64,000 nucleotides of DNA from Candidatus Kaiserbacteria bacterium (GTDB taxonomy: Bacteria > Patescibacteriota > Minisyncoccia > Phycocordibacterales > Phycocordibacteraceae), in assembly GCA_026396715.1 (NCBI GenBank), contig JAPLWH010000014.1:8063-72062 (forward strand), read 5' to 3'. The notes beneath the pieces are model-generated. The model was given only the letters and a program-made list of their open reading frames with translations, was not told where the DNA came from and did not search any database. The position numbers were made by a program, and so were the translations under genes. The first letter of the stretch is position 1. Every line of letters begins with the position of its first letter. Of this stretch, positions 40,212-63,250 are shown piece after piece.

Positions 40212-41273
40212 ATGCTCGGAGATGAACAACAATACGAATTGTATTGGAAAATAACCCTAGAATACTCTGATTTTTTTGGGGAAAAATTTCGAACGTGTCT
40301 TGCAGTTATCGTTGCGTTCATTGACGAGCAAAAAGATATTCCATTTTCTTCGGAAAAATACGAAGCGCTCCAGAAGCGAGTCGAAGGAGTGTTTCCAAAA
40401 GCCGACTCCGCATCCACTCGGAAAAGTATAAATCAGTACGTCAAATTAGGATTTATTCTTCCCGAATTGATTTTCTATCATCCAGCAACTAAAGCCTTTT
40501 TGCATGAAACTAGTCTGGGGAAGAAAAAAGCCCTGCTCTCTAAAATCATCTACTCGGATTCTAGCTTTGACCGATCGGTCACGAATCAGTCCGATAAAAA
40601 AGAGATAAACTTCCTGATCAAAACGCTGCAGAAGGTCGGGACTCTATCGAAAGACGGCGTTCTTGCGCTCATGACCGTAGACGTAAGTGCAGTTCCTAAC
40701 GGGTTTTTGGATCGAGCTGGTCTAGAAGAACGTCGTCGTCTTGTTGATGCAATCAATTTCGGGGAAAGAAAATACAATCAACTGAGTTATCTTTGGTCGC
40801 TCTTAAAACAACTCGATGGCTTAGTGGTACAAGACGATACCATTTCTCTGCAGGTAGACATGGCGGTCGTCGGGGATGAAGTAGATGATCTTCCGAAGAA
40901 GCGGGATCCGTATCTGCACCAGATATACAAAAATCAGCTCAAAGTAGAGTCGAATGATCAATTTGGCAGCATCGCATGTATGCTAGAGAAGCTTGCATAC
41001 CCATCTCTAGTCGCTAGTCACATCAAGCCGTTCAGCATTTCCTCGGAAGTGGAGGCTTATGACGTAAACAACGGATTGCTTTTAAGTAAAAATATGGACT
41101 TTCTGTTCGATCAGGGATACATTTCCTTTTTGTCGGATGGCTCGATACTCATTTCAGAACGGTTACATATCGGCGTAAGAGAATATCTGAAACCATTCAC
41201 TCTTGGTAAGACATTTCTTGCGGAGGCACGACTTGCATATCTCGAATATCATCGAGCACATGTGTTTTCTTGA
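40212..41273 (+). CDS. HNH-family nuclease, candidate restriction endonuclease of the adjacent methyltransferases
   Basis: C-terminal ASHIKP...NGLLLS...FDQGYISF matches the HNH restriction-endonuclease fold. Low-GC gene next to two DNA MTases. Confidence 0.5.
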   Translation: MLGDEQQYELYWKITLEYSDFFGEKFRTCLAVIVAFIDEQKDIPFSSEKYEALQKRVEGVFPKADSASTRKSINQYVKLGFILPELIFYHPATKAFLHETSLGKKKALLSKIIYSDSSFDRSVTNQSDKKEINFLIKTLQKVGTLSKDGVLALMTVDVSAVPNGFLDRAGLEERRRLVDAINFGERKYNQLSYLWSLLKQLDGLVVQDDTISLQVDMAVVGDEVDDLPKKRDPYLHQIYKNQLKVESNDQFGSIACMLEKLAYPSLVASHIKPFSISSEVEAYDVNNGLLLSKNMDFLFDQGYISFLSDGSILISERLHIGVREYLKPFTLGKTFLAEARLAYLEYHRAHVFS

Positions 41274-42276
41274 GATTTTTCACGACAAAGAGATACTCCG
41301 TATTCCTATCCTTGTTCTCCTTGCCTGTTACCTTGTAGCGATGGGGTTTTTCAATAATCTCTATAGAACTCGCATATTTTGAAAGCAATGTATACAGCTC
41401 TTCTTTGCTTGGGAAGGAAGAGTTGTTATAGCTCATAACCCAATATTTGTATGAGGTAAGGTTCGCAAATAATCTGTCGAAGAGTTCTAGGGCAGACTTT
41501 CGATTTACGAAATTGTTTTTGAATGGCTTTAATTTCTTCGATTCTATGTATTCGTCTAACGCGCCATAAAATCCGAAATAATTATTCATCGTGCCTGAAT
41601 ACGGGGGGTCGAGATATATCACGTCTGCCTGTACCGTTCCGAGTAGATCAAAAATATCCCTGTTGTACACACGGTTATCCTTTCCGTTGTCAAAGACCGC
41701 TTGATTATATGCGGTTAGATTTGCGAGCACATGCTCTCGGAATGAAAGATTGTGATATGCGCGTTTTCTCCCATACGTTTTATAGCTGTGAACTTCATCG
41801 CGAAGCTTTTTTATCGTATTCCAATCAATAGTAAATCTGGAGTACGGCATTTTTCGTATCATGGCGCGCCGGAGTAAGCTCAGTGCCAATGCTTTTTTAT
41901 ACGTCGAGCCGAGTTTCTCCACATTTTTCCGGTATCGATCAAGCTCCATGCATTCATTGGGAAAAAAATAAACATTCGCGTAGTTTTTATACATAAAACC
42001 TTTTACTGGTTTCCCCGCGAAGAGGATAGTCAGGTCTGATTCTTCCAAGGTTTCCCGCTTATTTTCTATAAGCGCAGTAGCCAACTGAGCATTAATTTTC
42101 AGAATGTCGTTGCTGATGACGCGCATCCCTCTTTTTTTCGCTTCGTATCCGACGGAACTGCTTCCGGCGAAAGCGTCGAATACGGACTCTGCAGCTATCG
42201 GGAATAGATCGCAAATCCAAGAAGCAAGCTTTTCTTTATTCCCGATGAAGTTTATTTTTGGAGGTTTATTTTTCAT
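41197..42276 (-). CDS. N6-adenine DNA methyltransferase, D12/Dam class
   Basis: Motif I FAGSSSVG and motif IV DPPY (VIYLDPPYSG). Confidence 0.8.
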   Translation of the reverse strand: MKNKPPKINFIGNKEKLASWICDLFPIAAESVFDAFAGSSSVGYEAKKRGMRVISNDILKINAQLATALIENKRETLEESDLTILFAGKPVKGFMYKNYANVYFFPNECMELDRYRKNVEKLGSTYKKALALSLLRRAMIRKMPYSRFTIDWNTIKKLRDEVHSYKTYGRKRAYHNLSFREHVLANLTAYNQAVFDNGKDNRVYNRDIFDLLGTVQADVIYLDPPYSGTMNNYFGFYGALDEYIESKKLKPFKNNFVNRKSALELFDRLFANLTSYKYWVMSYNNSSFPSKEELYTLLSKYASSIEIIEKPHRYKVTGKENKDRNTEYLFVVKNLKKTHVLDDIRDMQVVPPQEMSYQE

Positions 42277-43300
42277 TGCGAATTACTTTCTTCAGTCTCT
42301 GGGCAATCATTTTTGCGAGTAGGGGAGGTACTGCGTTTCCGACCTGTTGCTGCTGAGAAATCTTTGAACCGGTAAACACAAATGAGTCGGGAAATGATTG
42401 AATGCGAGCCAGTTCGCGGACGGTCAGCGCTCTATTTTGCGAGTAATGAAATATCTTCCGCATGTCTCCGGTAACGCATACGGAGGGCTCAGTACTAGTA
42501 TAACGAATGTATTTTCTACTATCCCCGGTTAGCGGTCTGAGCGGAAGAGGAATTTGAGACCGGTCTCCTCCGTCTTTTACATACGCCATTTTTTTGAGCA
42601 TCTGAGGCGTATGTCTCATGGCTTCATGATTGGGGATAACTGAAGAAGCTCCTACTTCCAGGGTCGGAAGGTCATGTATCGCATCCCAAACGGTTTTGAT
42701 GCGGTTCGTTTTCTCCTTTGAGAATGCAAAAGGTAGATCAGATTTAGTGCCGACGAAAATAACTCGTCTTCTGGATTGCGGTACGTCATACTCTGCTGCG
42801 TTTAAGATCGTACAAGAGACGGTGTACCCAAGGTTTGAAAAGCACTCGATTATTTCGGCGCGCGTCTGACCTTTGTTGTGGCTGTACAGGCGAGCGACGT
42901 TTTCCATAACGAAGTATTCCGGCTCTATTATTTTTATCACACGAGCAAATTCGCGGAATAAACGATTACGAGGATCAGCTATAAATTTCCGACCGATGCT
43001 GCCAGCCATGCTAAAGCCCTGACAGGGCGGACCTCCTATGACGACATCCACGTGTTGTTTTTTCAGTATTTTCTTTATTTCTTTTGCGTCTATCTTTGAA
43101 ATGTCAGATTGGATAAGTGTATGATTAGGGAAATTAGCGCGATACGTTTTACAAAAGTTCGGCTCGTTGTCTAAGGAGAAAATATTTTTGAACCCGGCTT
43201 TTTCAAATCCGAGCGCTAAGCCGCCGGCACCGCAGAAAAGATCAATATAGGTCAGATCTGCTTGTTTTTTCTGAGCCATACTATTGCCTGAGTATAGCAA
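42266..43300 (-). CDS. dcm: C-5 cytosine-specific DNA methyltransferase
   Basis: Motif I LFCGAGGLALGF, motif IV GGPPCQGFS, ENV motif. Confidence 0.9.
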   Translation of the reverse strand: MLYSGNSMAQKKQADLTYIDLFCGAGGLALGFEKAGFKNIFSLDNEPNFCKTYRANFPNHTLIQSDISKIDAKEIKKILKKQHVDVVIGGPPCQGFSMAGSIGRKFIADPRNRLFREFARVIKIIEPEYFVMENVARLYSHNKGQTRAEIIECFSNLGYTVSCTILNAAEYDVPQSRRRVIFVGTKSDLPFAFSKEKTNRIKTVWDAIHDLPTLEVGASSVIPNHEAMRHTPQMLKKMAYVKDGGDRSQIPLPLRPLTGDSRKYIRYTSTEPSVCVTGDMRKIFHYSQNRALTVRELARIQSFPDSFVFTGSKISQQQQVGNAVPPLLAKMIAQRLKKVIRNEK

Positions 43301-45637: not shown

Positions 45638-46249
45638 ATGCTATCTATGAAAATGAACACCAAAACCCGTGCCTCCATGCTTGTTCCGATGGTCATTGAA
45701 AAGAGTCAGTTCGGTGAGCGCGCGTACGACATCTACTCGCGTCTCCTCAAGGAGCGCATCGTGTTCCTTAGCGGCCCGATTGACGACGATACAGCAAATC
45801 TCGTCATCGCACAGCTGCTTTTCCTCGAAGCGGAAGATCCAAAAAAGGACATCTCGCTCTATATCAATTCCCCGGGCGGTTCCGTCACGGCGACGCTCGC
45901 GATGGTAGATACGATGAATCACGTGAAGCCAAATGTCTCGACCGTATGTGTCGGCATGGCAGCTTCCGGCGCGGCAATCCTCCTCTCTGCTGGGGAAAAA
46001 GGAAAGCGTTTCGCACTTCCGCATGCGGAAGTGATGATTCATCAGCCACACGGCGGTGCCGAGGGTCAGGCCACCGACATCGAGATTACGGCGAAGCAGA
46101 TCTTGAAGCTCCGCGCGGTGCTGAACAAAATTCTTTCGAAGAATACCGGACAGCTGCTCGCGAAGATTGAGAAAGACGTCGAGCGCGACTTCTTCATGAC
46201 TGCCGACGAAGCGAAGAAATACGGCCTCGTCGACAAGGTGTACGGCTAG
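45638..46249 (+). CDS. clpP: ATP-dependent Clp protease proteolytic subunit
   Basis: Catalytic Ser context ([11 protein letters not shown]), His, and length. Confidence 0.9.
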
Positions 46250-46266
46250 TCCGGGCATGAATGCAT

Positions 46267-46303
46267 GACGAAACGCGCCGGCGAAGCCGGCGCGTTTCGT
46301 TTT
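46267..46303. terminator. 34-nt palindromic hairpin (gacgaaacgcgccggc-gaa-gccggcgcgtttcgt) followed by a T-run; left bracket of the GHKL gene
   Basis: 16-bp perfect stem. Acts as the clpP terminator. A near-identical copy lies at 47313-47346. Confidence 0.7.
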
Positions 46304-46315
46304 AACCGAGATCTT

Positions 46316-47398
46316 TTATTTACCGACTCTTTCAACCATAAATCGGACTGCTTCGTCCATGTTTATCGGTTGAATTTCAATATTCGGATGCTTTTCTTTA
46401 AAGACCCTAAAAACCTCATCAGCAAATGCTTGTCCGATTGTCGGCACCTTGTCGAAATCAAGAATTATAGATTCGAATTTATCCAGCCCTTCGAGAATGC
46501 GCCGTGCTTGGGATCTAGATACATGTACCCCATCACCAGAAGCATACAGCTTCACTTTTATCTCAGTTTTGTTAAATGCGAATTCTGTACCGACACTGAA
46601 TTTTCTGAAGATGGCGCTGAGATGTCGTGTTGAATTGACATCAATAGAAAATCTTACCCATGTGCCTCTTTTCAGAGCTGGGAGAGTCTTATAGAACACC
46701 TCGTGCGTCTTATTGTTAATTGTTAAAACATATCCATAACTTTCAAGTGTAAACACATCAGCCGCTTTTGATGTAAAAAAAATACCTTGACCAGAATGAG
46801 ATTTCGGCATGGTGGTGGTCTTCCCTTTCAGCAAGTCCTGCATGGCTTCTAACTCAGTCTTCAATCCCTTTTCTTTCATAATATTGCGGAAAACCCCAAT
46901 CCCAAAGTCGTTGACGATGAAGTGCAATTTTCGGTTTTGAACCGATACTTCAACTTCTACGTATTTTGATTGCGAATGTTCAATTGCATTGTTAAGAATT
47001 TCGGAGAACGCATAATTAAGAATACTTCTGACATTCTCGGAAAGGCGTTTAACTGGAGGATATTGGTTTTGAATATCTTCATAAATTTCGTGCTCTTGCA
47101 GACCATTGTTTTTTAATCGTTTAGAAATCCGTACAGGGAATGCCCCAACTTCGTCGGCTGACTCTGGCAATAGATAGTAAGCTCTGTTCGTTGAACCAAC
47201 CTTGACCAGTTTATCCTTGAATACAAGATCGTTGACCAAGATAACGGCATACTGCCTCGAGATTCCGAATGAAATTGTCGATAGTAAACCGCATATAAGG
47301 TTATTCCAGCGTGACGAAACGCGCCGGCTTCGCCGGCGCGTTTCGTTTGTGTTAGAGTCAGCCCGTACCGCAAGACCGCCCGCCCGACTCGACTGCAC
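46316..47398 (-). CDS. GHKL-type ATPase/kinase-like domain fused to a C-terminal STAS-like (DUF4325-like) domain
   Basis: N-box ILNNAIEHS and G1 box DFGIGV of the HATPase_c fold. C-terminal region resembles anti-sigma-antagonist STAS domains. N-terminal extent uncertain (the track uses a GTG start inside the palindrome). Confidence 0.55.
   Translation of the reverse strand: MQSSRAGGLAVRADSNTNETRRRSRRVSSRWNNLICGLLSTISFGISRQYAVILVNDLVFKDKLVKVGSTNRAYYLLPESADEVGAFPVRISKRLKNNGLQEHEIYEDIQNQYPPVKRLSENVRSILNYAFSEILNNAIEHSQSKYVEVEVSVQNRKLHFIVNDFGIGVFRNIMKEKGLKTELEAMQDLLKGKTTTMPKSHSGQGIFFTSKAADVFTLESYGYVLTINNKTHEVFYKTLPALKRGTWVRFSIDVNSTRHLSAIFRKFSVGTEFAFNKTEIKVKLYASGDGVHVSRSQARRILEGLDKFESIILDFDKVPTIGQAFADEVFRVFKEKHPNIEIQPINMDEAVRFMVERVGK
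47313..47346. repeat. second copy of the 34-nt palindromic hairpin (loop flipped); right bracket of the GHKL gene
   Basis: Stem identical to 46267-46300. The loop is ttc rather than gaa. Confidence 0.7.
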
Positions 47399-47466
47399 CG
47401 CCGCACCGCCCTTTTTAAGAACCTTATCCTGTTTCGCCTTCGGGAACAGATCTAATTACACGGGCC

Positions 47467-48996
47467 ATGTCACTCAAAATCATATTGATAATGCTTGCGC
47501 TCTCGGGCGTCGGCGGCATCGTGCTCGGCTACGTGCTGCGCGTCCTCATCGGGCTCGCCCAGCGCGGTTCGGTCGAACTCGACATAAAACAGAAGATCCT
47601 GGCCGCCCAGGAACAGGCGACGAAGATCATCGCCGCTGCGGAGTTTCGTGGCGAAGTCATTGAGACCGAGCGTCTGGCACCTGTCGAGGAGCGCGAAGAA
47701 AAAGTGGTCGCACGCGAAGAACGCATTGCGACGCGCGAAGAATTCCTCGATTCCCGCCAACGCGATCTTGATGAGAAGGAAAATGACGTACGTGCCCGTG
47801 AACAAGATGCGGCGCGTGCGAAAGAAGAAACCGAGAAGCTCAAAAACGAGCGCCTGAAAGAGCTTTCAAGGATTTCGAACCTATCTGAAGAGAAAGCTCG
47901 CGGCGAACTTTTTTCTGAGATTGAGCGCGCGTATGAAGAGTCAATCCTGATGCGCCTGCAAAAGCTTGAGGCGCATGGCCGCGAGCGCCTCGAAGACAAG
48001 GCGCGTTCCATCCTCACGAGCACTATTCATCGGCTCGGCAATGCGGTAAATGCGGAGGTCATGTCGCTCTCGGTCACACTCCCCTCGGAAGACATGAAGG
48101 GAAAGATTATCGGTAAAGAAGGGCGCAATATCAAGGCTTTTGAGCGTGCGACGGGTGTCGACGTGATCATCGACGACGCGCCAGATCGTATTACGCTTTC
48201 CTCATTTGATCCTTTGCGCCGCGCCATCGCGAAGATCGCGCTCGAAAAGCTTATTGCCGATGGTCGCATCCAGCCGACGAAGATTGAAGAGGCGGTGGAG
48301 AAGACGCGAGCTGAGGTCGCAGAAATCGTGAAGCAGAAAGGCGAAGCGGCTGCGTACGAAGTGGGCGTCATCGGGCTCGACCCGAAGCTGACTGCCCTTC
48401 TCGGACGTCTCCACTTCCGCACGAGCTATGGGCAGAATGTTCTCACGCACTCCATCGAGATGGCGCATATCGCGGGCATGCTCGCGGTAGAACTCGGTGC
48501 TGATGTCGCGGTGGCCCGCGCAGGCGCGCTTCTGCACGACATCGGCAAAGCGGTTGATCATGAGGTGCAGGGCACGCATGTCGAGATTGGTCGTCGTATT
48601 CTCGAGAAGTTCGGCGCCGACAAGCGGATTGTTCAGGCGATGCAGTCGCATCACGAGGAGTATCCGTATGAAACGCCCGAGTCAGTCATCGTGCAGGTGG
48701 CCGACGCCATCTCTGGCGGCCGCCCGGGAGCGCGGCGTGACACGGTCGATCGCTATCTCGAACGTCTCGGCGACTTGGAGCGCCTGGCAGCCACGTTTGA
48801 AGGCGTGGAGAAGGTCTACGCAATTGCTGCCGGCCGTGAGATACGCGTCTTCGTGAACCCGGGAAAGATTTCCGACATCGCGATGCACACGCTCGCGCGC
48901 GACATCGCGAAACGTATACAGGATGAATTGAAATATCCGGGCGAAATCAAGGTCAACATCATCCGCGAAAACCGCGTCGTCGAATTTGCGCGATAA
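47467..48996 (+). CDS. rny: ribonuclease Y
   Basis: N-terminal TM helix, coiled coil, KH domain (GKIIGKEGRNIKAFE), HD domain (HSIEMAHIAGMLA...LLHDIGK). Confidence 0.9.
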   Translation: MSLKIILIMLALSGVGGIVLGYVLRVLIGLAQRGSVELDIKQKILAAQEQATKIIAAAEFRGEVIETERLAPVEEREEKVVAREERIATREEFLDSRQRDLDEKENDVRAREQDAARAKEETEKLKNERLKELSRISNLSEEKARGELFSEIERAYEESILMRLQKLEAHGRERLEDKARSILTSTIHRLGNAVNAEVMSLSVTLPSEDMKGKIIGKEGRNIKAFERATGVDVIIDDAPDRITLSSFDPLRRAIAKIALEKLIADGRIQPTKIEEAVEKTRAEVAEIVKQKGEAAAYEVGVIGLDPKLTALLGRLHFRTSYGQNVLTHSIEMAHIAGMLAVELGADVAVARAGALLHDIGKAVDHEVQGTHVEIGRRILEKFGADKRIVQAMQSHHEEYPYETPESVIVQVADAISGGRPGARRDTVDRYLERLGDLERLAATFEGVEKVYAIAAGREIRVFVNPGKISDIAMHTLARDIAKRIQDELKYPGEIKVNIIRENRVVEFAR

Positions 48997-49499: not shown

Positions 49500-49802
49500 T
49501 CACGGTCGTTTTTCGAAATACGGCAGGAGCTGCCTCTTTCCGCCGAACTTCGCCAAATGAGACATACCCATCCTTAGGCTTCTGTGCACCGCGTTAGGAG
49601 TAACTTCCCATTCTTCTGCAAGCTCGCGTGGAGTCTTTCCGTCTAAGTATACTCCGATAAAGGCGGCTTTCTGCGCGCGCGGCATTTCCTCAAAAAGCAC
49701 CCTCAGAAGCTTTCGGAGCTCCATCTGTTCCAGCTTCTCGTCTGGCAGCATGGCGTTGTCGATCGCTTCGTTTCTGGTCGAAGCCAATAACGACTTCTTC
49801 AT
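49500..49802 (-). CDS. stand-alone sigma-70 region 4-like HTH protein (100 aa)
   Basis: MPRAQKAAFIGVYLDGKTPRELAEEWEVTPNAVHRSLRMGMSHL fits the sigma70_r4_2 pattern. SD AGGAAGGGG upstream. Confidence 0.55.
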   Translation of the reverse strand: MKKSLLASTRNEAIDNAMLPDEKLEQMELRKLLRVLFEEMPRAQKAAFIGVYLDGKTPRELAEEWEVTPNAVHRSLRMGMSHLAKFGGKRQLLPYFEKRP

Positions 49803-49827
49803 GGGATTCCCCTTCCTGTCTTGTTTG

Positions 49828-49920
49828 ATTGAAAGAACAATTGGGATAGAAACTATCCCACCAAAACTTTCAAACGAGTTGAAGACTTTGGTAGGAGCCG
49901 AAGCAGGGTGCTTCGGCTTC
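49828..49920. repeat. family 1A structured repeat, copy 1 (three hairpins + TGTTCTTTCAAT tail on the minus strand)
   Basis: About 90% identical to copies at 51108-51203 and 53316-53405 and to a partial copy at 51985-52042. Hairpin loops vary while stems are conserved. Confidence 0.8.
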
Positions 49921-51089: not shown

Positions 51090-51107
51090 GGAGCACCTCC
51101 TTATTTC

Positions 51108-51203
51108 GATTGAAAGAACATTTGGGATAGAAACTATCCCACCAAAACTTTCAAACGAGTTGAAAACTTTGGTGGGAGCCGAAGCGGTGTTTTGCTTCGG
51201 CTG
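51108..51203. repeat. family 1A structured repeat, copy 2
   Basis: See copy 1. Confidence 0.8.
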
Positions 51204-51738: not shown

Positions 51739-51984
51739 ATTTTTACGACCTAGGATGGTCGGACGATTCACGGCAAGAACTTTTTTCGTAGATAGCGCCA
51801 TGCTGGCGCTATCTACGCGCTGGAGAAACGCCTGCACTGAATATCAGTGCGCTATTGTCTTGCGATCGACAATACTTTCTATCAAGTGATCCGTGTAGAA
51901 AAGATCTTCCGTCAGGAAATCTTTTCTTTCACAGCCCATTTTTGACAGTCTCATAAATTTAATTATGTGACGGCGTATCTCCCG

Positions 51985-52042
51985 CCAAAACTTTCAAACG
52001 AGTTGAAAACTTTGGTAGGAGCCGAAGCAGGATGCTTCGGCT
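51985..52042. repeat. family 1A repeat, partial copy 3 (hairpins 1-2 only)
   Basis: Identical distal half. Proximal hairpin 3 and the tail are missing. Confidence 0.7.
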
Positions 52043-60642: not shown

Positions 60643-62130
60643 GTGCCCGTGTGGTACGATTTGGAAATGGTCTATCGTATCCCCAGTGAAGTATCGGTAG
60701 TCTCAAATAGCCTGCGAAAAGCAGGATTTGAAGCGTATCTTGTCGGGGGCTGCGTGCGCGATCTCATTATTGGGCGCGAGCCAAAGGATTGGGATATAAC
60801 GACGAACGCGACACCGACGCAGATCCAGGCTATATTTCCTGACTCTTTCTATGAAAATGACTACGGAACCGTCGGCGTGAAGACGGGTTCTGAGGATGCT
60901 CGGCTCGCTATCGTTGAGATAACCCCCTACCGCACCGAATCTGCGTATTCCGACAAGCGTCGGCCAGACAAAGTGGAGTTCGGTACTTCCCTGCTCGAAG
61001 ATCTCGCACGCCGCGACTTTACGATCAACGCTATTGCCCTCGACGACGCTCAAGGACATCTGGTTGACCCGTATGACGGTCAAAAGGACATAAAGGACAA
61101 AGTGGTGCGGGCGGTTGGTAACGCCTCTGAGCGCTTCAATGAGGACGCTCTGCGCATGCTTCGTGCCGTTCGCTTAATCGCCGAGCTCGGTTTCGGCATA
61201 GATAGCAATACAGCATCGGCGATAAGCGAAAATAGCAAGCATTTAAGCCATGTTTCACGTGAAAGGGTGCGAGATGAGCTCATAAGAATACTGAATTCAA
61301 AACAGCCGATGAGTGCCCTGGTTCTCTCTCAACAGCTCGGTATTCTTGAGTTTATCGTTCCAGACCTCATTCGTGGCATCGGTGTCGAACAGAATCAAGC
61401 GCATTCATACGACGTTTTCGGACACAATCTCCGCACGATGCAGCATGCGGCTGATAAGGACTGGGGTTTTGATATCCGTCTCGCTGGCCTCTATCACGAC
61501 ATAGCCAAGCCGGAGACTCGTCGCTGGGTCGAAGAAAAGAAAGACTGGAGCTTCCATGGGCATGAGGTTGTTGGTTCACGTGTAACAAAAAAGGCGCTTG
61601 AAGACCTCCATTTCCCACGCGAAACGATAGATAAAGTCGTTAAGCTGGTGCGTTGGCACATGTTCTTCTCTGATCCTGAGCAAATTACCCTCTCTGCAGT
61701 GCGCAGGATGATCAAGAACGTCGGCGAGGAGAATATAGTGGACTTACTCAATCTTCGCATCTGCGACCGCATAGGGACCGGCAGGCCGAAGGAGCAGCCT
61801 TTTCGTTTTCGCAAATACAAAGCCATGGTTGATCAGGCGCTTCGTGACCCAATTTCAGTAGGAATGCTCAAAACAGACGGAAAACACATCATGGAAATGT
61901 TCCACGTGAACCCAGGACCGAAGCTCGGATGGGCACTGAATGCACTTTTGGAGGAGATTCTTGATGATTCCGCTAAGAATACGGAAGAATATCTCGACAA
62001 ACGCACCGAAGAACTTCTCAAAATGCCTGAAGATGAGCTACGAAAGCTGGGAGAATCCGGGAAAAAGAAGAGGGAAGCGGCAGAAGATGAGGAAATAAAG
62101 CATATAATGGAGAAACACCACGTCTGTTAA
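60643..62130 (+). CDS. cca: CCA-adding tRNA nucleotidyltransferase / poly(A) polymerase family with HD domain
   Basis: PolA head domain (GGCVRDLIIGREPKDWDITT). HD domain (LYHDIAK...HGHE). Confidence 0.85.
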   Translation: MPVWYDLEMVYRIPSEVSVVSNSLRKAGFEAYLVGGCVRDLIIGREPKDWDITTNATPTQIQAIFPDSFYENDYGTVGVKTGSEDARLAIVEITPYRTESAYSDKRRPDKVEFGTSLLEDLARRDFTINAIALDDAQGHLVDPYDGQKDIKDKVVRAVGNASERFNEDALRMLRAVRLIAELGFGIDSNTASAISENSKHLSHVSRERVRDELIRILNSKQPMSALVLSQQLGILEFIVPDLIRGIGVEQNQAHSYDVFGHNLRTMQHAADKDWGFDIRLAGLYHDIAKPETRRWVEEKKDWSFHGHEVVGSRVTKKALEDLHFPRETIDKVVKLVRWHMFFSDPEQITLSAVRRMIKNVGEENIVDLLNLRICDRIGTGRPKEQPFRFRKYKAMVDQALRDPISVGMLKTDGKHIMEMFHVNPGPKLGWALNALLEEILDDSAKNTEEYLDKRTEELLKMPEDELRKLGESGKKKREAAEDEEIKHIMEKHHVC

Positions 62131-62202
62131 AGCGTCTCACTTCGTCGAGGCAGTGTTCCACGTGAACCATAAATGAGCTTTGGGTAAGTATAGAAACAAG
62201 AA

Positions 62203-62283
62203 AACCGCCCTGGGCGGTTGGAGGCAAAAAGGAGCTGGGGCGTTGATGGGGCTTCCAACCAGAGAATATGAGGGCGGTTTTGT
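62203..62283. terminator. nested hairpins forming convergent terminators for cca (+) and xth (-)
   Basis: aaccgccc-tg-ggcggtt followed by a T-run on the minus strand. aaaaccgccct...agggcggttttgtttt on the plus strand. Confidence 0.55.
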
Positions 62284-62482
62284 TTTGCATACTGACGCTT
62301 TCACGTGGAACACCTTACCGAATGGCTTGTGTTGCGGATCGCCGCAGCGTGGGCAGGGTACCTGTTAGGCGCATTGATGCCGATAACTGATATTGGACAG
62401 AGCTGGAAAGAACTTCTCGTCTTTTGCTATCCTATTCTAGTAAAGGACAATGTAAAGGACATGCCTGTGGACAACGTGTCCT

Positions 62483-63250
62483 TTAAGAAATAGTTATGGA
62501 AAGAGGGCAGTGGTCGGAACCGTAGATCTCAGGGTGTATCTCTGCTTTCTTGAGGTTCTTTGCGAGTTCACTTGCGACGAAGAAATAGTCGAGACGCCAG
62601 CCGACGTTTCGGTCGCGAGAACGGGTCTTCATATCCCAGTACGTATACGCTTCTTTCGTGTTTGGATGGAGCTGACGGAATGAGTCTAGGTATCCGGCAC
62701 TTATGACTTCATCGATCCAGGCGCGTTCTTCAGGTAAAAAGCCTGTATTTCCCTCGTTTTCTTTCGGTCGGGCGAGGTCTATCGCTTCGTGGGCAGTGTT
62801 CACGTCCCCACAGAATATGACGGGTTTTTGCTTACGAAGTTTTTCGACAAATGAAAGAAAAGCATCGTAAAAACGTAGTTTGTAATCGAGCCGTTCGGGA
62901 CCCTGCCCACCATTGGGGAAGTACGCATTGATGAGCCAGAAGTCATCATATTCTGCGCCGATGAGCCGTCCTTCCTGGTCGAATTCCGGTATGCCCATGC
63001 CATAGATGACTTTCAATGGCTCGATTTTTGAATAGATCGCGACACCGCTGTAGCCTTTGCGCACTTGGCAGGAGGAGAAAAATGATGAAAAGCCAGCAGG
63101 GGAGAGCATCGCCTCCGATACCTGTTCGGGATTCGCTTTTGTCTCCTGGAGGCAGAAAATATCGGGCTTCGTGCCTTTCAAAAAAGATTCCCAATAACCA
63201 TCCTTGGCGAGCGAGCGCAGCCCATTCACATTCCAAGAGACTATCTTCAT
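62483..63250 (-). CDS. xth: exodeoxyribonuclease III
   Basis: MKIVSWNVNGLR, CLQETK, and the EEP catalytic motifs (GDFN, SDHCP). Confidence 0.9.
   Translation of the reverse strand: MKIVSWNVNGLRSLAKDGYWESFLKGTKPDIFCLQETKANPEQVSEAMLSPAGFSSFFSSCQVRKGYSGVAIYSKIEPLKVIYGMGIPEFDQEGRLIGAEYDDFWLINAYFPNGGQGPERLDYKLRFYDAFLSFVEKLRKQKPVIFCGDVNTAHEAIDLARPKENEGNTGFLPEERAWIDEVISAGYLDSFRQLHPNTKEAYTYWDMKTRSRDRNVGWRLDYFFVASELAKNLKKAEIHPEIYGSDHCPLSITIS

Follow-up and report, generated by a model that had tools for sequence, protein, structure and literature searches.

Restriction-modification (R-M) units have been described that enter genomes by 'insertion with long target duplication' (Furuta, Abe and Kobayashi 2010, PMC2853133, following Nobusato et al. 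2000). These units lack mobility genes, are often low in GC and are absent from the sister genome, and they are flanked by direct repeats of more than 30 bp and variable length, to which one sequence in the empty genome corresponds and which in many cases overlap a gene at its 3' end (PMC2853133). The cases come mostly from naturally competent bacteria, and a life cycle of invasion, amplification and release via the repeats has been proposed (PMC2853133). A locus of similar make-up is found in a Candidatus Kaiserbacteria bacterium, on contig JAPLWH010000014.1, positions 8,063 to 72,062 (this whole 64,000-nucleotide stretch is called the window below), where a gene of the DUF4325 family lies on the minus strand between the plus-strand genes clpP and rny, with the same hairpin on both sides. 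The locus is probably the site of a decayed, recombinase-free mobile cassette that lies between two copies of the clpP terminator, having arrived by insertion with long target duplication. Its parts are listed here, with L numbers denoting the loci and contigs used for comparison.

45638 to 46249, plus strand: clpP, the ATP-dependent Clp protease proteolytic subunit, left host flank; 93% identical to the L001 gene, which matches Pfam CLP_protease.
46263 to 46302: left copy of the 40-nt target duplication, holding the predicted clpP terminator hairpin (46268 to 46300, loop GAA, then UUU), between the convergent clpP and cassette open reading frame (ORF).
46303 to 46315, minus strand: 3' untranslated tail of the cassette, 13 nt from stop codon to left repeat, as read from the sequence.
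46316 to 47272, minus strand: 5'-truncated ORF of the winged helix-turn-helix (wHTH)-GHKL-STAS (DUF4325) family, family residues about 25 to 342, with NNAIEH, DFGIG and HSGQGIFF intact.
47273 to 47308, minus strand: remnant of the distal upstream region of the cassette, with a degenerate distal operator-like ATTGT..TAAAC, placed by alignment with L001, L004 and L002.
47309 to 47348: right copy of the 40-nt target duplication (hairpin 47314 to 47346), in what would be the ancestral position directly upstream of the putative rny promoter, judging from alignment with the empty sites of L069 and L014.
47350 to 47358, plus strand: putative extended -10 box of rny, TGTTAGAGT.
47359 to 47466, plus strand: 5' leader of rny, with a small stem-loop (47429 to 47449) that shows compensatory changes in relatives, by eye.
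47467 to 48996, plus strand: rny (RNase Y), right host flank; the L001 orthologue matches Pfam RNase_Y_N, KH and HD.

The two palindromes are 33 nt each and 100% mutually complementary, the left one reading ACGAAACGCGCCGGC-GAA-GCCGGCGCGTTTCGT and the right one having the same stem with the loop TTC. The original prediction of two 16-bp-stem palindromes differing in the inversion of the loop is thereby confirmed, the stem consisting of a perfect 15 bp which a G.U closing pair extends to 16 bp. RNA folding gave free energies (dG) of -32.6 and -35.3 kcal/mol with z-scores of -6.2 and -7.2, and none of 200 shuffles was equally stable; a 15-16-bp stem forms on either strand (-30 to -35 kcal/mol, z -5.5 to -7.2). 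A search of the window allowing up to three mismatches returned these two copies only (0.00 expected by chance from shuffles), and the further copies for which a search had been proposed were likewise missing from the metagenome collection, where the exact hairpin had 0 matches and hence neither a second sample of the species nor an empty allele with this hairpin was found. In direct orientation, identity continues past the palindrome for another 5 nt on the left side (GCATG / GCGTG) and another 2 nt (TT) on the right side, giving the 40-nt direct repeat, of which 36 positions are identical and three of the four differences are the inverted loop. Inverted-sense identity, by contrast, ends at the border of the palindrome, and the pair is therefore a direct duplication in which the loop has been flipped. 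Small loop inversions do occur in hairpins, and the 3-nt loop is exactly reverse-complementary between the copies, as a hairpin-loop flip would give.

Comparison with orthologous junctions identifies the segment between the repeats as an insertion. One genome per species was scanned for relatives of the window's RNase Y, yielding 80 loci, and together with the loci found via the cassette protein 75 distinct clpP-rny junctions could be measured. Empty junctions (spacer of at most 320 nt) account for 42 of the 75, and a clear hairpin lies within the first 130 nt in 35 of these 42; 26 hold more than 500 nt of unrelated cargo (0.5-2.4 kb) and seven have spacers of 321-500 nt. The junction is thus an insertion hot spot in Kaiserbacteria-like genomes. 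The hairpin sequence changes from lineage to lineage while its pairing is maintained. The closest relatives, as the original prediction had anticipated, have a single hairpin and no insert, the hairpin standing directly before TGnTAnAGTC (extended -10-like) and then a conserved rny leader; a looser motif, TGnTAn[AC]nT, stands right behind the hairpin in 10 empty sites, most of which have an rny identity of at least 83%. The nearest relative of the window, L069, is among these empty sites, and joining the left flank of the window, one hairpin and the right flank reproduces the sites of L069 and L014 in alignment; the insertion therefore duplicated a target of about 40 bp, which is the predicted clpP terminator. 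A DUF4325 gene occupies clpP-rny only in the window, L001 (=L018), L002/L003, L004/L005 and L088, and its orientation is the same in all five cassette copies at this junction.

Among the other cargo of the hot spot are a GIY-YIG ORF (L017) and an ORF interpreted as an IS30-like transposase (L019), the latter lying between two hairpins that resemble each other, at spacer positions 274-310 and 1616-1648. Spacers with cargo include those of L010, L017, L019, L023, L026, L031, L034, L051, L063, L067 and L073.

The hairpin is predicted to be the host's own intrinsic terminator of clpP. The left copy lies 18 nt past the clpP stop codon and has a stem of about -32 kcal/mol, UUU(U) after the stem and a U-rich 3' arm; in relatives a hairpin is found at the orthologous position, with the sequence changed and the pairing kept. 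With its GC-rich 15-16-bp stem, 3-nt loop and U-rich 3' side it resembles the rho-independent terminators of convergent genes, from which the right hairpin of the window differs in no longer standing behind any gene end. A terminator consensus scan (at least 5 U in the 8 nt after the stem) called neither hairpin, part of the U-tract being inside the stem, and Rfam at a permissive threshold gave only sub-gathering matches, to small RNA models via their terminator hairpins.

The same cassette is found elsewhere, and there its borders are of a different kind. In its intact form it measures about 1.2 kb and comprises, besides an ORF of 342 codons, two TTTACAAT operator-like boxes and a TTGACA-17-TAnAAT promoter; copies at other sites encode proteins 70-92% identical and have the same upstream module (two TTTACAAT boxes and the -35 element TTGACAAT), which is conserved in L001, L004, L006, L088, L089, L092 and L174-L180, where protein identity is 76-92%. 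At least six genomic contexts have been found, including the following.

After xth: L006, L092 and L174.
Divergent from xth: L177.
Facing the 3' end of a xerC-like gene: L176.
After a sigma-factor operon: L175.
Near a HIT gene: L089.
Two further contexts: L179 and L180.

When the 450 nt upstream of each cassette were aligned with the 350 nt downstream, with 200 shuffles as control, direct repeats of 25-63 nt were found to flank six of the 13 cassette loci, far above chance (0/200 shuffles). Of the two copies at each of these loci, one serves as the functional host sequence and the other is a remnant in decay.

Window: 40-nt repeat of the predicted clpP terminator.
L001: 29-41-nt repeat of the predicted clpP terminator.
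L092: 63-nt repeat of the last codons of xth.
L174: 52-nt repeat of the last codons of xth.
L176: 52-nt repeat of the 3' end of the xerC-like gene.
L175: 25-nt repeat of local sequence.

Both the window and L001 have the xth target as a single copy. The same repeat test applied to 23 other cargos of the clpP-rny hot spot gave none above control, and long target duplications of variable length are therefore characteristic of this cassette. Judging from these comparisons, what was struck in the window simply happened to be the hairpin. The original prediction had instead proposed recombination at the hairpin and taken its duplication as the signature of such an event. This is not supported, since the hairpin appears to be a duplicated host terminator and the cassette is elsewhere flanked by duplicated sequence that forms no hairpin; moreover, L004 and L002/L003 carry the gene at clpP-rny without duplicated hairpins.

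Several of these loci have features of their own. In L092 three copies of the xth 3' end are present (902-964, 2107-2137 and 2138-2200), namely the functional end, a decayed duplicate past the cassette and a 30-nt remnant that adjoins the cassette promoter and resembles the xth ends of L006 and L174, which suggests travel with a previous host's flank. Another hint of donor-derived flanks comes from L176, where the upstream remnant of the xerC-like 3' end (47-99) is, by eye, about 88% identical to the xerC end of L177 (5018-5110) and about 77% identical to its own functional copy (1221-1272). The window itself has the empty counterpart of the xth insertion site of L006, L092 and L174 at 62131-62482, a spacer between xth (62483-63250, minus strand) and a convergent ORF (60643-62130, plus strand) that is probably a CCA-adding enzyme by synteny with L001; the spacer holds one terminator-like hairpin at about 62204-62228, CCAACCGCCC-aggg-GGGCGGTTTT. 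A metagenome scan with an 18-nt promoter core gave 27 matches, with the gene present only in L092 and the remainder at about the level of chance for an 18-mer.

The copy in the window has decayed. The insert between the repeats measures 1006 nt and has a GC content of 0.40 and a GC content at third codon positions (GC3) of 0.39, against 0.55-0.58 and 0.67-0.69 for clpP and rny. It holds one ORF, with HATPase_c_2 and DUF4325 as the only domain matches. The minus-strand frame between the hairpins is open from 46316 to 47398, and family homology begins only at residue about 25; further upstream the frame passes into the right hairpin and then into antisense rny leader. The proposed insertion of a 1.1-kb minus-strand gene thus holds, with the correction that the ORF is not an intact gene of this length. 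DNA alignment with three intact loci (L001, L004 and L002) places an internal deletion of about 175 bp with its junction at about 47272/47273, which took away codons 1-24, the proximal TTTACAAT box and the TTGACA-17-TAnAAT promoter. What is left between the deletion and the right repeat, 36 nt at 47273-47308, can still be aligned to the distal upstream region of L001. A scan of the minus strand upstream of the truncated ORF found no promoter-like site. At the other end, the tail of 13 nt compares with downstream repeats that begin 2-26 nt past the stop codon at other cassette loci. With promoter, operator and 24 codons gone, the gene is likely dead or crippled, and this copy is probably a pseudogene, although its GHKL and STAS parts are still uninterrupted. 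In the NCBI annotation of the Candidatus Kaiserbacteria metagenome-assembled genome (MAG), 46316-47239 is given as a 307-amino-acid (aa) 'DUF4325 domain-containing protein' with a TTG start.

Set beside the R-M units, the locus agrees in every structural respect. The insert is absent from relatives that align to both flanks (42 of the 75 junctions are empty, with L069 and L014 as examples), it is flanked by a direct repeat longer than 30 bp (40 nt) of which the closest relatives' empty sites hold one hairpin, and it is smaller than 20 kb, with no transposase, integrase or other mobile element in an ORF and Pfam scan of its 1006 nt. As in the R-M cases, a small low-GC unit recurs at different sites with different duplications, and the hosts are likely to be DNA-competent, the window encoding a type IV pilus/type II secretion system ATPase. 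It differs in its host, a member of the candidate phyla radiation (CPR), in its cargo, which is a single wHTH-GHKL-STAS gene rather than R-M genes, and in the duplicated target being a terminator-like hairpin with copies identical save for the inverted loop. Since the structural features all agree and the cargo alone is different, the event is placed in the same class of insertion.

The course of events may be reconstructed as follows. In the ancestral state a lone clpP terminator would have separated the clpP stop codon from the extended -10 box of rny. A low-GC cassette of about 1.2 kb would have entered between the terminator and the rny promoter, duplicating the target of about 40 bp; after the insertion the left hairpin could terminate the convergent transcripts of clpP and the cassette, and the right hairpin would have retained its ancestral place before the rny promoter. 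Having neither a recombinase nor fixed ends, the cassette would behave like the R-M units of Kobayashi's group, and its precise loss would be possible by recombination between the flanking repeats. Later decay, in the form of the internal deletion, would have removed the promoter, the proximal operator and codons 1-24. Two further models for the duplication itself seem less suitable: cruciform resolution yields no duplication, and a Campbell-type single crossover would leave two xth remnants in L092, where three are seen, and would depend on homology between distant donors, which hairpins specific to each lineage would not supply.

The age of the insertion can be approached by comparison with L001. 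Between this locus and the window the synonymous divergence (dS) is 1.35 for the cassette gene, 1.07 for clpP and 1.42 for rny; the values being similar for insert and flanks, the cassette copies are as diverged as their hosts. The cassette-repeat junctions lie at equivalent positions in the two loci. The hairpins of the window are identical, although orthologous hairpins differ between all lineages, and the best explanation for this identity despite a dS of about 1.1-1.4 is either a recent gene conversion that made the copies alike or a recent re-insertion. In L001 the right hairpin copy has diverged (79% identity, dG only -12 kcal/mol); it has an 'ACT' insertion in common with its own left copy while its 3' half is window-like, which resembles partial conversion. 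A test for recent co-transfer of the flanks together with the cassette was negative, the 3' ends of clpP in the window and L001 being no more alike than the rest of the gene. Across hosts with a GC3 of 0.6-0.8 the cassette has kept a GC3 of about 0.38-0.39 despite a dS above 1, and in a rough neighbour-joining tree of RNase Y the genomes that bear it fall in four places among empty ones, the sister of the window, L069, being empty. The scattered distribution and the steady low GC3 fit repeated gain and precise loss better than vertical descent.

Vertical descent is nevertheless the basis of an alternative in which the gene is an old resident that most relatives have lost, the second hairpin having arisen by later local duplication or conversion and proving useful beside an antisense gene. 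The equal dS of the gene, clpP and rny between the window and L001 would be expected on this account, as would the shared locus and orientation in the window, L001, L003, L004 and L088, and the two direct repeats would permit easy precise loss. Yet the four scattered places on the RNase Y tree (a rough one, from one protein) would demand many independent precise losses, the persistence of a GC3 of 0.38-0.39 in hosts of 0.6-0.8 runs counter to long residence, and near-identical cassettes at other loci, with duplications of their own host sequences, are left unexplained by a story specific to one locus, so that this account seems unlikely. It is improbable that the hairpin is a dedicated recombination site (attC-like, dif/Xer-like or of an HUH or tyrosine recombinase) and the gene a site-specific cassette. 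A hairpin does stand on each side of a one-gene insert and only one in the closest relatives' empty sites, and genes for XerC-like recombinases lie near the cassette in L006, L176 and L177; however, the hairpin differs in sequence from lineage to lineage, as the local clpP terminator would, it has no further copy in the window or the metagenome collection, the insert holds no recombinase, the repeats vary from 25 to 63 nt, and the same cassette lies elsewhere between duplicated coding sequences that form no hairpin. The stem ends ACGAAAC / GTTTCGT are also unlike the integron core RYYYAAC / GTTRRRY. An attC identity in particular was rejected, given the unmatched cores, the perfect stem, the correspondence of the hairpin to the terminator-like hairpin of empty sites and an insert with no recombinase (the window was not exhaustively scanned for intI). 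Integron cassettes do share with this locus the single ORF, the palindrome on both sides and the variable presence among relatives. The palindrome here is host-borne, whereas attC is borne by the cassette, and it has neither attC core sites nor extrahelical bases; the cassette has its own promoter, forms no array and has no adjoining intI, and its other copies lack border palindromes.

The arms of the palindromes, 100% complementary over 33 nt and 1013 nt apart, might also make the 1-kb segment an invertible DNA switch. This is scarcely credible: all five copies at the locus have one orientation, no invertase is found within or next to the segment, the gene lacks a promoter on which a switch could act, and the inverted reading comes down to the 3-nt loop, the flanks extending the repeat only in direct orientation. 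Rather different is the proposal that the second hairpin, the deletion or both are artefacts of assembly from a mixed population, in which filled and empty alleles were collapsed at the palindrome. The MAG contig has been found once, and related contigs break at or near the spacer (L008 begins inside rny, L088 ends at the 3' end of the cassette). This too is very improbable, for the palindrome of 33 nt is shorter than a read and has unique sequence on either side, L001, which comes from another study, has the same architecture with a diverged right copy, and the 36 nt between the deletion and the right repeat can be aligned to the distal upstream region of L001.

A recombinase-free cassette inserted with long target duplication thus remains the favoured account, and several observations weigh against it. 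The duplication is no constant companion of the gene: seven of the 13 cassette loci have no flanking repeat, and at clpP-rny itself L004 has the left hairpin only, L002/L003 have the right one only, behind an extra gene, and L088 has a weak 7-bp hairpin remnant only on its right side. The third, donor-like xth remnant of L092 is not explained by a simple one-step model. If the insertion took place in the ancestor of the window and L001, gene conversion is needed as an extra assumption to account for the identical hairpins; if it was recent, the site, orientation and junctions shared with L001 call for recurrent targeting or transfer through flanking homology. The deletion and the perfect repeat both come from one metagenome-assembled contig of one sample.

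The encoded protein joins a wHTH, a SpoIIAB/RsbW-like GHKL ATPase and a STAS-like DUF4325 domain in one chain. The window's ORF matches Pfam DUF4325 (E 4e-15, 55.6 bits against a cut-off of 23) and HATPase_c_2 (E 6e-8, 33.2 bits against 27.4), both above the Pfam cut-offs, as had been expected of it. The first 60 or so residues of full-length homologues (341-346 aa) form a winged helix-turn-helix, as judged from weak Pfam matches (DIP2311-like C-terminal domain, AbiEi_4 and MarR_2) and from three helices and a beta-hairpin in an AlphaFold model. This model (AF2), of the intact orthologue P0002 from an 80-sequence alignment, has a mean predicted local distance difference test score (pLDDT) of 85 and a predicted template modelling score (pTM) of 0.78, and consists of the winged helix, a GHKL domain and a C-terminal alpha/beta domain. 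For the GHKL domain the best Foldseek matches in the Protein Data Bank (PDB) are the SpoIIAB structures 1til, 1l0o and 1tid, with template modelling (TM) scores of 0.65-0.72 normalised to the target. When the C-terminal domain was modelled alone (pLDDT 88), nine of the ten top Foldseek matches were STAS domains (prestin, RsbS, stressosome and YchM), at weak values (E 1e-2 to 1e-1, TM 0.46-0.62). The earlier assignment of an RsbW/SpoIIAB-like GHKL core and a C-terminal STAS-like domain is thereby upheld by HATPase_c_2, DUF4325 and the structural matches to 1til and 1l0o, while the N-terminal wHTH and the operator/promoter module had been missed.

Eight residues of the N, G1 and G2 boxes (E115, N118, N119, D146, G148, G150, G185 and G187) are invariant in the 80 homologues, as is G304-Q305, and manual alignment places this Gly-Gln at the position of the phospho-Ser of SpoIIAA; invariant serines are found elsewhere, at S276-R-S278 within an invariant SRSQARR motif. 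The likeness to the pairs SpoIIAB/RsbW and SpoIIAA/RsbV thus lies in the GHKL fold, the invariant N/G1/G2 residues and the STAS-like C-terminal domain. The family differs in that a single chain carries both the kinase-like and the STAS-like part after a DNA-binding winged helix, in having, by manual alignment, Gly-Gln at the SpoIIAA phospho-Ser site, and in having no sigma partner linked to the gene, save for the neighbouring sigma gene in L175. Database comparisons offered little on function: PADLOC gave no match for the cassette protein, NCBIfam only sub-threshold matches to histidine-kinase ATP-lids, PHROGs a match only to a family of unknown function, and a sequence search of the PDB nothing significant, with SpoIIAB marginal at E 0.5. 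The literature mentions DUF4325 in three papers, and no functional study was found. The homologue search returned more than 7000 homologues, and the DUF4325 wHTH-GHKL-STAS family is accordingly very large as well as uncharacterised, which agrees with its description in the original prediction as poorly characterised. The further suggestion of a self-contained switch or defence sensor stays conjectural, there being no PADLOC match and the phospho-Ser position of SpoIIAA being apparently Gly-Gln in the manual alignment.

As a working model, the protein would most likely be an autoregulator, with its winged helix on three TTKACAAT boxes that overlap its own -35 element, and the STAS-like domain, docking on the GHKL lid in an ATP-dependent manner, would most likely gate binding to DNA or to a partner. 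More distant relatives (31-45% identity) occur on 57 IMG/VR viral contigs (L117-L173), often between a late-regulator-like protein of about 180 aa with sigma-r4 similarity and genes like those for the small and large terminase subunits, all judged from sequence. The spot between the late regulator and the terminase genes is a typical moron position in prophages. The presence of DUF4325 relatives on viral contigs fits a mobile accessory or conflict gene.

Other features of the window were recorded in passing. The rny leader is conserved among close relatives (47350-47466 in the window; L009-L069) and runs from TGnTAnAGTC through a C-rich stretch, TTTTTAGAAC, the stem-loop and TAAnnAAACGGGC to the start codon. 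The stem-loop (47429-47449) reads CTGTTTCGCCTTCGGGAACAG in the window and CCCGCCCC..GGGACGGGG in L001, its sequence varying while its pairing is kept; the leader has no Rfam match and is possibly a regulatory 5' untranslated region of RNase Y. Directly upstream of nusA lies a low-GC island (40212-43300) with an HNH_2 endonuclease-like ORF (40212-41273, plus strand), a D12-class N6-adenine methyltransferase (41197-42276, minus strand) and a C5-cytosine methyltransferase (42266-43300, minus strand). This island is probably an R-M system, and L001 has other small genes in its place, including a GIY-YIG ORF. Downstream of rny, another low-GC island holds a family of 86-nt direct repeats (49824-49909, 51105-51190 and 51948-52033, the second and third 93% and 72% identical to the first), spaced by 1281 and 843 nt. 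Each copy has the hairpin TCCCACCAAAACTTTCAA-acgag-TTGAARACTTTGGTRGGA, followed in copies 1 and 3 by a second hairpin, AGCCGAAGCA-ggg-TGCTTCGGCT, and the repeats bound small ORF modules, including a 100-aa Sigma70_r4_2 protein (49500-49802, minus strand).

For annotation, the copy in the window is best handled as a gene that is probably dead, and its right hairpin as the predicted clpP terminator in a second, displaced copy. If the pattern holds, the filled, empty and decayed alleles at clpP-rny and xth would provide sequence-defined events for studying how gene units with no recombinase of their own enter and leave streamlined genomes, and the DUF4325 wHTH-GHKL-STAS family would be flagged as mobile and probably conflict-related. 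It is conceivable, if rather doubtful, that the cassette is an autonomous selfish element of CPR bacteria and phages which, in line with a proposal made for R-M systems, promotes or exploits its own insertion with long target duplications; its protein, with a DNA-binding domain and an ATP-driven GHKL clamp, might be involved in the DNA transaction itself, or else in post-segregational or defence behaviour. On this view it would enter preferentially at terminator hairpins and at the 3' ends of genes, and the repeats would let it excise precisely and invade anew. Insertion with long target duplication would, given the same condition on the pattern, not be peculiar to R-M systems or to proteobacteria, and a single regulatory or ATPase gene would also be moved by it around the tiny genomes of CPR bacteria, landing on terminators and the 3' ends of genes without destroying them.

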